Assembly (NCBI RefSeq): GCF_013315695.1
Contig: NZ_CP054353.1
Origin: Escherichia coli
Lineage (GTDB): Bacteria; Pseudomonadota; Gammaproteobacteria; Enterobacterales; Enterobacteriaceae
Strand: one strand, 5' to 3'
DNA: 64,000 bases
Shown: positions 38,693 to 56,609 of the stretch, in pieces
Numbering within the stretch: the stretch's first letter is position 1
Layout: each line of letters opens with the position of its first letter
Position numbers and translations under genes: made by a program
Notes under the pieces: generated by a model
What the model saw: the letters and a program-made list of their open reading frames with translations, nothing else
The model's database searches: none
Told to the model about the DNA's origin: nothing

Positions 38693-39103
38693 TTACTGCA
38701 TAACAGGTTGAATGTCGTGGATACGTACAAAGTCTAACTGTTCTACAGAAATCCCCTTTAACTGTAACGGAATATCAACATCGCTGGGGACGAGGACGCT
38801 GGCAGGGGCATTAATCAATTGATTCTGCAAATTGATTTCCTGAAAGTTGTCTATTGTTCCCTGAATTTGCCCATATTCAACAGTTCCGCTGAATGCGGGC
38901 AAGGGGTCATTCGACTCGCCCTGAATACGTAGCGTCAGGGTGGTGCCATCTGTATCATGCGTAATATTCACTAGCGACATACGTAAAGTACCGATCTGGC
39001 TTTCCAGTCTTGCCGGTGTTTTCGCTCCAGGCAGAAGGTAAACCCCACTGCTGGATTTTGCATTCAGCCTGTTTTGCTGAGTGATTTTGACGGTTTCTTT
39101 ATC
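38693..39103 (-). pseudogene. yajI: yajI lipoprotein gene, C-terminal portion (split by IS200/IS605-family insertion)
   Basis: Frame encodes ...DKETVKITQQNRLNAKSSSGVYLLPGAKTPARLESQIGTLRMSLVNITHDTDG...VMQ; boundary placed so that both parts sum to 179 aa, the YajI length as I remember it. Confidence 0.7.
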
Positions 39104-39582
39104 CGGTGCGCCGTAAAACCCCGTCCTTCAGGGCGGGGATATAAGGCGCGGTTTTCCACCTGACCAGGTGTTTGCTGTTGTTCAATGTATTGGCGGATGA
39201 CGGATATTGGCGCACCTCCGCAGCTACTGGCAAAATAGCCAGGACTCCACAAAACGCCTTTGTAGTAATACCTGACTGCAATATCTGGTCGATCTCGTCG
39301 CAGTCACCTACCCGATACGCCTTTGAGGCTGTTTACCAGACTGGATATCGCCAGTTTGGGAGGATAGTTAATTAACAAATGGACGTGATCTGGTTCGCCA
39401 TCCATTTCAACCAGTTCAGCTTCAAAATCAGCACATACATTTGAATAGTAAGTGCGTAGTTTTTCTGTCGCGTCATGGTCAAAAATCTGGCGTCGGTATT
39501 TGGGACAAAGACCAGGTGAACATGCATCAGGAAAACACAATGCCTTCCACGCCGGATATCGGTTTCTTTTTTCACAGACCAA
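39064..39582 (-). pseudogene. tnpA: IS200-type tnpA (HuH transposase), apparently frameshifted
   Basis: N-terminal ORF 39304..39582 has CPKYRRQIF and the HuH motif DHVHLLINYPP, then stops; the C-terminal part (WSPGYFASSCGGAPISVIRQYIEQQ) continues in another frame (39064..39252). Confidence 0.6.
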
Positions 39583-40850
39583 AGTATCATTTGACCTGTG
39601 AAACGATTACAGGCATTTAAATTCCAGTTAAGACCAGGTGGTCAACAGGAGTGTGAAATGAGGCGCTTCGCAGGCGCATGTCGTTTCGTTTTCAATCGTG
39701 CTCTGGCGCTTCAGAATGAGAATCATGAGGCCGGTAATAAATACATCCCTTACGGGAAAATGGCTTCCTGGCTGGTTGAGTGGAAAAACGCCACTGAAAT
39801 GCAATGGCTTAAAGATTCGCCCTCACAGCCATTGCAACAGTCACTGAAAGACCTTGAGCGGGCTTACAAAAACTTCTTCCAGAAGCGGGCTGCTTTTCCC
39901 CGATTCAAAAAGCGGGGACAGAATGATGCATTCCGCTACCCGCAGGGCGTTAAGCTCGATCAGGAAAACAGCCGTATTTTTCTGCCGAAACTTGGCTGGA
40001 TGCGCTACCGGAACAGCCGTCAGGTCACGGGTGTTGTGAAAAATGTCACTGTCAGCCAGTCCTGCGGTAAGTGGTACATCAGTATTCAGACAGAAAGTGA
40101 AGTATCCACTCCGGTTCACCCTTCAGCATCAATGGTCGGGCTGGATGCTGGCGTGGCTAAACTCGCCACGCTGTCAGATGGCACAGTCTTTGAGCCTGTA
40201 AACAGTTTTCAGAAAAACCAGAAGACGCTGGCGAGACTTCAGCGACAGTTAAGCCGCAAGGTCGAATTCAGCAATAACTGGCAGAAGCAGAAACGCAAAA
40301 TACAGCGACTGCATTCCCGTATCGCAAATATCCGCAGGGACTACCTTCACAAAGTCACAACGACCGTCAGCAAAAACCACGCAATGATAGTCATTGAGGA
40401 TTTGAAGGTCAGCAACATGTCAAAGTCAGCAGCGGGTACGGTCAGCCAGCCGGGGCGCAATGTCCGGGCAAAATCAGGTTTAAACCGTTCGATACTGGAT
40501 CAGGGCTGGTATGAAATGCGCCGCCAGCTTGAGTACAAGCAGCTCTGGCGTGGCGGTCAGGTGCTTGCTGTTCCGCCAGCGTACACAAGCCAGCGTTGCG
40601 CGTGCTGTGGTCATACAGCGAAAGAAAATCGCCTGTCACAAAGTAAATTCAGATGCCAGGCATGTGGATATACAGCGAACGCTGATGTAAATGGCGCTCG
40701 TAACATTTTAGCGGCGGGGCACGCCGTTCTTGCCTGTGGAGGGATGGTGCAGTCAGGCCGCCCGTTGAAGCAGGAACCCACCGAAATGATTCAGGCGACA
40801 GCCTGAACGTAGCAGGGATCCACGTCCTTCAGGGCGTGGAGGATGTCAAT
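39104..40850 (+). mobile_element. IS200/IS605-family insertion sequence (IS609-like), about 1.75 kb
   Basis: Divergent tnpA (HuH Y1 transposase, degraded) and tnpB; near-identical subterminal imperfect hairpins at both ends; interrupts yajI; no terminal inverted repeats, as expected for this family; boundaries inferred. Confidence 0.75.
39598..40806 (+). CDS. tnpB: TnpB (IS605 OrfB family RNA-guided endonuclease; InsQ-like)
   Basis: 402-aa [20 protein letters not shown]... with RuvC-like motifs ([24 protein letters not shown]) and CxxC...CxxC zinc finger. Confidence 0.9.
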
Positions 40851-40979
40851 GAGTTGCGTCATCTCCTGGTTCAGTGTGCTGACGCTGTGTTTCATCTGCC
40901 GCACTTCGCTTTGCTGCACACAGGCGCTAAGGCTGAACAGGCTTCCCAGCAGGAGCAGTCGAAAAACGTTAGTATTCAT
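40851..40979 (-). pseudogene. yajI: yajI lipoprotein gene, N-terminal portion
   Basis: MNTNVFRLLLLGSLFSLSACVQQSEVRQMKHSVSTLNQEMTQL (lipoprotein signal peptide with lipobox LSAC), then the frame runs into the IS right end. Confidence 0.7.
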
Positions 40980-56066: not shown

Positions 56067-56609
56067 CTAAGCCGCGAGAATATGCTGAATCGCTAAAAAC
56101 ATCGGTACAGCACCGAAAACATTGGGCCTCGCTGAAAGCTGAACAAAGCCGAGGCGAGTATAAAAGTTAATGGCGGCAGGGTCAGCATCAAGATAAACCC
56201 CTTTAATTGGTAATGCACGGTGAATTATTTTTACATGTTCAAAAAAATCACATAGTAGGTCCTGACCAAAGCCCCGCTTTTGATATTTCCGCGCTACCCC
56301 TAACATGACTAATCTGACAACACCAATCTCTGAAGGTTGTGAACCCTGAAGGACGCCAGAAACGCGTTGTTTTTCCAGCGAATATGCCGTAAAAGTACAG
56401 ATGCCAATCAGTTCACCACTTTGTCTGTCAATAAGAGCTTTAGCAGCACAGTCGCTATTACGCACACTTTTCTTTAGCGATGCGCGTACAAATTTATCGA
56501 TAACAGGGTTACCGCAATCAAACTGTTTTTGCCCAGGATAAGTAATATCAGACTGATAATTACAGGAGAGGACTATGGGCAGAGTAATCTCTTCATGCTT
56601 GTCGACCAT
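56067..56609 (-). CDS. GNAT-family acetyltransferase toxin (TacT/AtaT/ItaT-like type II toxin)
   Basis: 180-aa ORF with N-terminal FDCG motif (QKQFDCGNPVIDKF), cf. QRFDCGEEALN remembered from AtaT; GNAT acetyl-CoA signature (RGFGQDLLCDFFE); immediately downstream of and overlapping a DUF1778-type antitoxin. Confidence 0.75.
   Translation of the reverse strand: MVDKHEEITLPIVLSCNYQSDITYPGQKQFDCGNPVIDKFVRASLKKSVRNSDCAAKALIDRQSGELIGICTFTAYSLEKQRVSGVLQGSQPSEIGVVRLVMLGVARKYQKRGFGQDLLCDFFEHVKIIHRALPIKGVYLDADPAAINFYTRLGFVQLSARPNVFGAVPMFLAIQHILAA

Follow-up and report, generated by a model that had tools for sequence, protein, structure and literature searches.

Two short hairpins, at positions 39119-39138 and 40820-40839 of a 64-kb stretch of the Escherichia coli contig NZ_CP054353.1 (hereafter the window), are very probably the left and right imperfect palindromes (IP_L and IP_R) of the insertion sequence IS609, a copy of which interrupts the lipoprotein gene yajI, and the structures recognised there by the HuH transposase TnpA. 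As the known left and right recognition structures of a named element they are an already described feature, and the literature found on IS609 itself consists only of resistome and mobilome surveys, with no account of the IS609 ends. The original prediction, made from the letters alone, had taken the pair for the hairpins that a HuH transposase recognises, on single-stranded DNA, at the left and right ends of an IS200/IS605-like element. This is supported by the ends of the element, the geometry, the genes and the covariation between related elements, while TnpA binding is deduced from homology. The coordinates of all features are displayed in Table 1.

Both hairpins were found on the + strand at exactly the positions proposed, CCCCGTCCTTCAGGGCGGGG on the left and CCACGTCCTTCAGGGCGTGG on the right. 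Folding of the two ends as single-stranded DNA gave in each case an 8-bp stem and a 4-nt TTCA loop, with energies of -6.5 kcal/mol (left) and -5.8 kcal/mol (right) and z-scores of -2.9 and -4.1, respectively, and for each hairpin only one out of 200 shuffled sequences folded as well. The only non-Watson-Crick pair of each stem is a T·G at stem position 6/15, the same in both hairpins, which agrees with the single mismatched position per stem that had been predicted. The two hairpins differ solely at stem position 3/18 (C-G in the left one, A-T in the right one), a difference that reads as a compensatory change. The common core on one strand was also found: the 64 kb contain exactly two copies of the 14-nt core CGTCCTTCAGGGCG, both on the + strand and at the ends of the element. 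When up to two mismatches were allowed, three matches were obtained in the window against 0.40 expected, a number that none of 100 shuffles reached. Furthermore, a census of G+C-rich hairpins (8-bp stem with at most one G·T pair, loop of 3-6 nt and at least six G-C pairs) showed six of them in the window versus 1.65 in shuffled sequences, and the IS609 pair represents two of these six. The hairpin pair is real and beyond chance. The third core match, CGTCCTTCAGGGTT, carries two mismatches and lies at 56342-56355 on the - strand; it was judged to be a chance match, without a 3' partner arm and without the IS609 flanking motif.

Regarding the boundaries of the element, uninterrupted yajI alleles read TTTCTTTAT followed by TGAGTTG, with the insertion point between them. 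In five other E. coli strains, whose yajI is unbroken, GTTTCTTTAT is joined directly to TGAGTTGCGTC, which is exactly the window minus 39103-40849; hence, the element is 1,747 bp long and was inserted with no target duplication. The insertion is located directly 3' of TTAT (39099-39102), the right end finishes in TCAA (40846-40849), and the hairpins are subterminal, at 16 nt from the left end and 10 nt from the right end. The span of 39119-40839 given with the prediction is exact for the hairpins, but it is the hairpin-to-hairpin distance and the true ends are 39103 and 40849. These ends are given both by the empty yajI sites and by the IS609 copy of strain K-12, so the hairpins are not placed far from the termini of the reference copy, the outcome that would have spoken against the prediction. 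K-12, in which yajI is intact, was tried as the empty-site reference and rejected because of an apparent mismatch at the junction (TTGAT vs TTTAT); the five other alleles show that TTTAT is a common polymorphism. The yajI alleles of K-12, B and O157:H7 have TTGAT at the insertion point, versus TTTAT in the alleles that match the occupied site (window 39096-39102; K-12 L002:2717-2723, where L numbers designate the loci compared in this work). Judging from the sequence, a K-12-type allele, without the TTAT target and predicted transposon-associated motif (TAM), should be an unfavourable site for insertion and likewise for cleavage by TnpB.

The IS609 copy annotated in K-12 MG1655 (mobile_genetic_element 1503161-1504908, with the pseudogene yncK/tnpA and insQ/tnpB) is 98.2% identical to the window copy, with one gap over 1,747/1,748 bp. 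Both copies present CCGGTGCGCCGTAAAA and then the hairpin on the left, and the hairpin and then AGGATGTCAA on the right; both start with CCGGTG, end with GTCAA and are preceded by TTTAT, and both encode the same 402-aa TnpB and carry the same premature stop in tnpA. Near-identity and the same ends as the annotated copy place the window element in IS609. On the other hand, the K-12 copy sits in the ydcL-ydcO spacer and the window copy in yajI, with an extra tnpA frameshift in the latter. Moreover, the 5' arm of the K-12 left hairpin (L003:4178-4197) is CCCCATCC versus CCCCGTCC in the window, giving an additional A·C mismatch beside the T·G, so the K-12 reference copy is more decayed at the left end than the window copy. 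As for the IS200/IS605 family (IS605 type, with tnpA and tnpB), the element presents a Y1 HuH transposase gene (a pseudogene here), a TnpB gene, subterminal palindromes on the same strand without terminal inverted repeats, insertion with no target duplication 3' of a fixed tetranucleotide and, on comparative evidence, the guide tetranucleotide rule.

The tnpA remnant was recognised by Pfam Y1_Tnp matches on two frame fragments (E = 1.9e-21 and 3.2e-6), and both the HVHLL and RQYIEQQ motifs are present. The remnant shows homology to the TnpA structures solved for IS608 and ISDra2 (2a6m, 2vhg, 2xm3), the match to IS608 TnpA being distant (E = 4e-10). A tblastn search with an intact relative showed that the stop is common to the K-12 copy and that the frameshift is additional in the window copy, whose tnpA is labelled 'frameshifted; internal stop' by the Prokaryotic Genome Annotation Pipeline (PGAP). 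Since the catalytic tyrosine lies downstream of the premature stop, the window copy cannot make the transposase, and with tnpA inactivated it is unable to move on its own. In tnpB, Pfam detected OrfB_IS605 (5e-34), Cas12f1-like_TNB (1.1e-24) and HTH_OrfB_IS605 (4e-13), and the protein matches the ISDra2 TnpB structures 8bf8, 8exa and 8h1j with E = 1.1e-53.

IS608 from Helicobacter pylori serves as the structural and biochemical model of the family, and the subterminal imperfect palindromes of its top strand are bound by its TnpA (PMC3201880; PMC5934647). Its left cleavage site, TTAC, is part of the flank, 19 nt away from the left hairpin foot on the 5' side, and the cleavage sites are read not by the protein but by base pairing with the four bases 5' of each hairpin, the guides G_L (AAAG) and G_R (GAAT) (PMC3201880; PMC5934647). 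The comparison of the window element with the IS608 ends gave the same layout, 16/10 nt here versus 19/10 nt in IS608 (PMC3201880): subterminal palindromes on the top strand, no target duplication, a TCAA end 10 nt after the right hairpin foot, and insertion 3' of a tetranucleotide that pairs with the four bases 5' of the left hairpin. The predicted G_L of the window element, AAAA, adjoins the hairpin foot on its 5' side, in the same placement as AAAG in IS608. In addition, both elements have AT after the left hairpin (the triplet-forming A+42 and T+43 of IS608) and a second small left-end hairpin (PMC5934647). The window element differs in its TTAT target, its AAAA guide and its tnpA divergent from tnpB, which is the arrangement of IS605 and IS606, while close relatives of it use the IS608 pairs TTAC/AAAG and GAAT/TCAA.

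The guide and the target were then compared in relatives. The left-end motif GCCGTAAARNCCCGNCCTTCAGGG was scanned in one genome per species, which gave 72 loci (L017-L088) from Gammaproteobacteria, Betaproteobacteria, Alphaproteobacteria, Desulfovibrio, Planctomycetota, Terriglobales and Veillonellaceae. Upstream of the linker these loci share no related DNA, so they represent independent insertions. TTAT or TTAC is found 5' of 71 of the 72 left ends, and the guide changes with the flank: AAAA-TTAT in 57 cases, AAAG-TTAC in 14, a single exception (TCAT) and no crossed pair. Plasmid relatives present the same combinations, TTAT/AAAA in Klebsiella and TTAC/AAAG in Xylella and in an enterobacterial isolate. 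This covariation is the IS608 guide/cleavage-site rule as it shows in nature, and it is, among the sequence comparisons made here, the strongest evidence for the left hairpin region as a working transposase substrate. The 24-nt left-end motif, with three free positions only, is exact in at least six major lineages, and one Desulfovibrio bin carries at least 10 copies at different sites; such a wide spread suggests horizontal transfer, a very strong constraint on this end, or both.

The stem itself is also conserved. In the right ends of 16 relatives the hairpin is the consensus structure calculated by RNAalifold, with compensatory changes at three stem positions, and the 10-nt right tail hardly varies among relatives with 58-100% TnpB identity. 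Stem position 6/15 is repeatedly non-Watson-Crick in these right ends (T·G, T·T, G·G or A·C), and some lineages have a left hairpin with a bulged T in the 3' arm instead (GGGCTGGGG). The irregularity of the IS608 stem is an extrahelical T, whereas the window element has a T·G mismatch. An irregularity of the stem is thus kept while its chemistry varies, which fits a role in discriminating between the top and bottom strands.

The following mechanism rests on homology with IS608 and ISDra2, from which we infer TnpA binding and cleavage as well as guide-RNA production. The + (top) strand would become single-stranded on the lagging-strand template and its palindromes would fold into hairpins, which a dimer of the Y1 HuH TnpA would bind, using the irregularity at 6/15 to distinguish the top from the bottom strand. 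Recognition of the cleavage sites would fall to the four bases 5' of each hairpin foot, which pair with them, and not to the protein: AAAA (39115-39118) would pair with the flanking TTAT (39099-39102), 16 nt upstream, and GGAT (40816-40819) with TCAA (40846-40849), ending 10 nt downstream. Cuts after TTAT and TCAA would free a single-stranded circle, the donor would be resealed without a scar, and the circle could be inserted again 3' of another TTAT. Transcription of the right hairpin and tail would also supply the final part of the TnpB guide RNA, in which 40850-40865 would direct TnpB to the emptied TTAT-TGAGTTGCGTCATCTC site. Concerning the orientation, the GC skew of the + strand is positive across the window, which points to the top strand as the lagging-strand template; this is the orientation favoured by the IS200/IS605 family (PMC5027513).

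Regarding this second role of the right end, the hairpin begins 13 nt after the tnpB stop codon, and three Rfam matches were obtained over 40679-40862 in E-value mode only: RAGATH-18, HgcC and sot0042, which are RNAs located at tnpB 3' ends or TnpB guide RNAs (PMC4615843, PMC11061315). The 3' consensus of HgcC, sotRNA and RAGATH-18 (RF00062, RF02656, RF03064) aligns with the right hairpin and the tail, CCccCGcccUUuAgggCGggGAGGAGGUCAG in HgcC corresponding to CCACGUCCUUCAGGGCGUGGAGGAUGUCAA here. All three scores are below threshold and do not establish membership, so these weak matches were used as leads; the resemblance supports that the right end works like these RNAs, not that it belongs to RF00062, RF02656 or RF03064. 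The guide RNA of ISDra2 from Deinococcus radiodurans combines the 3' end of tnpB with the right end and some 16 nt of flanking DNA, and its TAM is identical to the transposon target, so that TnpB cuts the donor site once it has been emptied (PMC8612924). The TnpB of the window element is homologous and the same guide-RNA layout is predicted for it, although the target/TAM of ISDra2 is the pentanucleotide TTGAT and that of the window element is TTAT, or possibly TTTAT. With this layout, the guide RNA would end with TGAGTTGCGTCATCTC and would target TTAT-flanked empty yajI alleles. In an RNA copy of the right end, moreover, the T·G mismatch becomes a G·U pair. It is likely, on this comparative evidence, that the right-end hairpin has an additional role in the TnpB guide RNA.

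These same observations could be read in another way, in which the right hairpin is kept mainly as a stem of the TnpB guide RNA, for an RNA function and not for transposase recognition, and the left copy is a relic. The position of the right hairpin just past the tnpB stop and inside the HgcC and sot0042 matches would be expected in that case, as would the stable G·U pair, an intact tnpB beside a dead tnpA, and the fact that elements without tnpA (L009, L031 and L040, described below) keep the right-end region. However, the left hairpin is left unexplained, because it is outside any tnpB transcript and yet its motif is exact in 72 loci with a covarying guide. The two functions are also compatible with each other, so an RNA role as the sole explanation is very unlikely. 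Another possibility considered was that the hairpins act as intrinsic terminators, with tnpB ended by the right one and tnpA, on the - strand, by the left one, given that both hairpins are G+C-rich stem-loops just downstream of two divergent genes and that the left one is followed on the - strand by TTTTAC. Nevertheless, the right hairpin is followed by AGGATGTCAATGAG, with no T run, and the left one by only four T's, which are the complement of the AAAA guide that covaries with the target. A terminator would also block a guide RNA reading into the flank, and a terminator scan flags neither hairpin, an intrinsic terminator being a G+C-rich stem-loop with a T run (at least 5 of 8) behind it, which makes this explanation extremely improbable. 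Finally, short G+C-rich palindromes are common in enterobacterial intergenic DNA, and the pair could have been a chance inverted repeat or a host repeat of the repetitive extragenic palindromic (REP) type, unrelated to the insertion sequence. Practically no credence can be given to this idea: there are only two exact cores in 64 kb, both at the ends of the element, the hairpins travel with tnpB in relatives, and they are at the same offsets in the K-12 IS609 at another locus. They are absent from the empty yajI sites, and the empty-site comparison refutes this reading.

The assignment of the hairpins as the TnpA recognition structures IP_L and IP_R has to be weighed against several features that do not favour it. 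The tnpA gene is dead, with a stop and a frameshift, so the hairpins are not used by an enzyme encoded in cis. The yajI::IS609 insertion appears, from its distribution, to be fixed, and the second mismatch in the left hairpin of the K-12 IS609 shows that decay is tolerated in immobile copies. Furthermore, the left linker is 16 nt long here and 19 nt in IS608, and the predicted G_R is GGAT and not the GAAT of IS608 and most relatives. As for the RNA part of the proposal, no Rfam match reaches the gathering score (23.8 vs 50, 17.5 vs 88 and 28.1 vs 44.9 bits).

Table 1. Features of the yajI::IS609 region, in window coordinates.
Feature	Position	Strand	Description	Basis
IS609 (IS200/IS605 family)	39103..40849	+ (top strand)	1,747 bp	Empty-site reconstruction; ends coincide with K-12 IS609
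TTAT target / left cleavage site C_L, predicted TnpB TAM	39099..39102	+	Flanking DNA, outside the element	Present in empty yajI alleles and 5' of K-12 IS609
Left-end linker	39103..39118	+	16 nt, CCGGTGCGCCGTAAAA; last four bases AAAA (39115-39118) are the predicted guide G_L	
IP_L, left-end imperfect palindrome	39119..39138	+	CCCCGTCC-TTCA-GGGCGGGG, T·G at 6/15	Conserved in 72 loci, many phyla
3' flank of IP_L	39139..39149	+	ATATAA, then GGCGC, which can pair with GCGCC 39108-39112 (possible outer helix)	
Second small left-end hairpin	39157..39170	+	CACCTGACCAGGTG	Position analogous to the second hairpin of IS608, ISDra2 and IS605 (PMC5934647)
tnpA (Y1 HuH transposase) pseudogene	39166..39590	-	Premature stop 39304-39306, frameshift near 39502	
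tnpB (insQ-like)	39598..40806	+	Intact, 402 aa, RNA-guided endonuclease (by homology)	Pfam and ISDra2 TnpB structures
Predicted 3' part of the TnpB guide RNA (ωRNA/reRNA) scaffold	40733..40849	+	Includes the right-end hairpin	Sub-threshold Rfam matches; conserved stem CCUGU...GCAGG in alignment
Predicted right guide G_R	40816..40819	+	GGAT, directly 5' of the IP_R foot	GAAT in IS608 and most relatives
IP_R, right-end imperfect palindrome	40820..40839	+	CCACGTCC-TTCA-GGGCGTGG, T·G at 6/15	RNAalifold, 16 relatives
Right-end tail	40840..40849	+	10 nt, AGGATGTCAA; TCAA (40846-40849), the right cleavage site C_R, closes the element	
Predicted guide portion of the ωRNA	40850..40865	+	16 nt, TGAGTTGCGTCATCTC	Matches the empty yajI site beside TTAT; layout taken from ISDra2 (PMC8612924)
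yajI, C-terminal part	38693..39102	-		Open reading frame list; same locus in another strain, PGAP 'SadB/YajI family lipoprotein, missing N-terminus'
yajI, N-terminal part	40850..40979	-	Lipoprotein signal peptide	Open reading frame list; PGAP 'DUF3251 domain-containing protein, missing C-terminus'

Other features of the region are less clear. At the left end, a helix between GCGCC and GGCGC (39108-39112 with 39145-39149) would place the hairpin and the guide within an internal loop, with the cleavage site near the guide, but this is a weak observation. Its five inner pairs are mostly kept among 36 sequences, one pair being C-G in 24, T-A in seven, T·G in two and another combination in three, while the five outer pairs fail in the gapless register. 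The shuffle control of the whole structure was not significant, with 127-392 out of 500 shuffles reaching the observed values. The second small left-end hairpin overlaps the 3' end of tnpA and its conservation may stem from coding. The genes around the element are tsx, the split yajI, nrdR and ribD.

Concerning the distribution of the insertion, both yajI::IS609 junctions (39063-39142 and 40810-40889) are found in exactly 340 of 5,426 complete E. coli genomes, and the empty site in 5,084. In keeping with a dead tnpA, the insertion is a marker of lineage passed on by descent. Within this collection, full-length matches to the window reach at best 99.3% identity, and the genome of the window itself is probably outside it.

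Several derivatives of IS609 were also observed. Unannotated 46-nt units with a solo hairpin consist, directly after TTAT, of the 16-nt left linker, one hairpin and AGGATGTCAA, that is, IS609 minus all the DNA between the hairpins. They are located in E. coli chromosomes at L089:301-346 and L090:301-346, and also in L026, L049, L050, L053, L080, L088 and L025, whereas L086 and L087 carry solo units with an AGAAT(G/A)TCAA tail. The hairpin of the E. coli unit L090 is chimeric, its 5' arm (CCCC) being of the left type and its 3' arm (GTGG) of the right type; a deletion between the direct-repeat cores is expected to give this product. The 46-nt unit keeps both cleavage sites and the left guide, and these units may be transposing or may be mere scars. 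We tentatively suggest, as a rather doubtful possibility, that the 14-nt direct-repeat cores drive recurrent deletion of the interior and that the solo units, perhaps mobilised by TnpA in trans, form an unannotated miniature family in E. coli and other Enterobacterales. A count of solo units at 80% coverage (3,048 genomes) was rejected because 36-37 of the 46 nt are already covered by the alignment of an ordinary left end.

Other reduced elements, longer than these units, were found as well. Miniature elements in Desulfovibrio, Anaerovibrio and Veillonellaceae (L031, L040, L070 and L078) measure around 260-360 nt from the left hairpin to the GTCAA end and lack tnpA and tnpB, and two of them (L031 and L040) retain the conserved guide-RNA-like segment GAAGCAGGAACC. 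The Salmonella IncY plasmid NZ_CP149165.1 (L009:815-2152) carries an IS609 derivative without tnpA, in which tnpB follows within about 50 nt of the left end (TTAT, CCGGTGCGCCGTAAAA and a degenerate hairpin). The right hairpin of this derivative has a GTCA loop and is perfectly palindromic, and the genes beside the element are annotated as lysozyme and head processing protein.

Taken as the ends of the IS609 copy, the hairpins give the limits of this element to the exact base, explain the split of yajI as a clean insertion at TTAT and identify the active strand. With its tnpA dead and its tnpB intact, this copy is a domesticated or stranded one. Beyond E. coli, the pairing rule holds as natural covariation in relatives from several phyla, so for a relative not yet characterised the four bases beside the left hairpin would predict both the target and the TAM of its TnpB.

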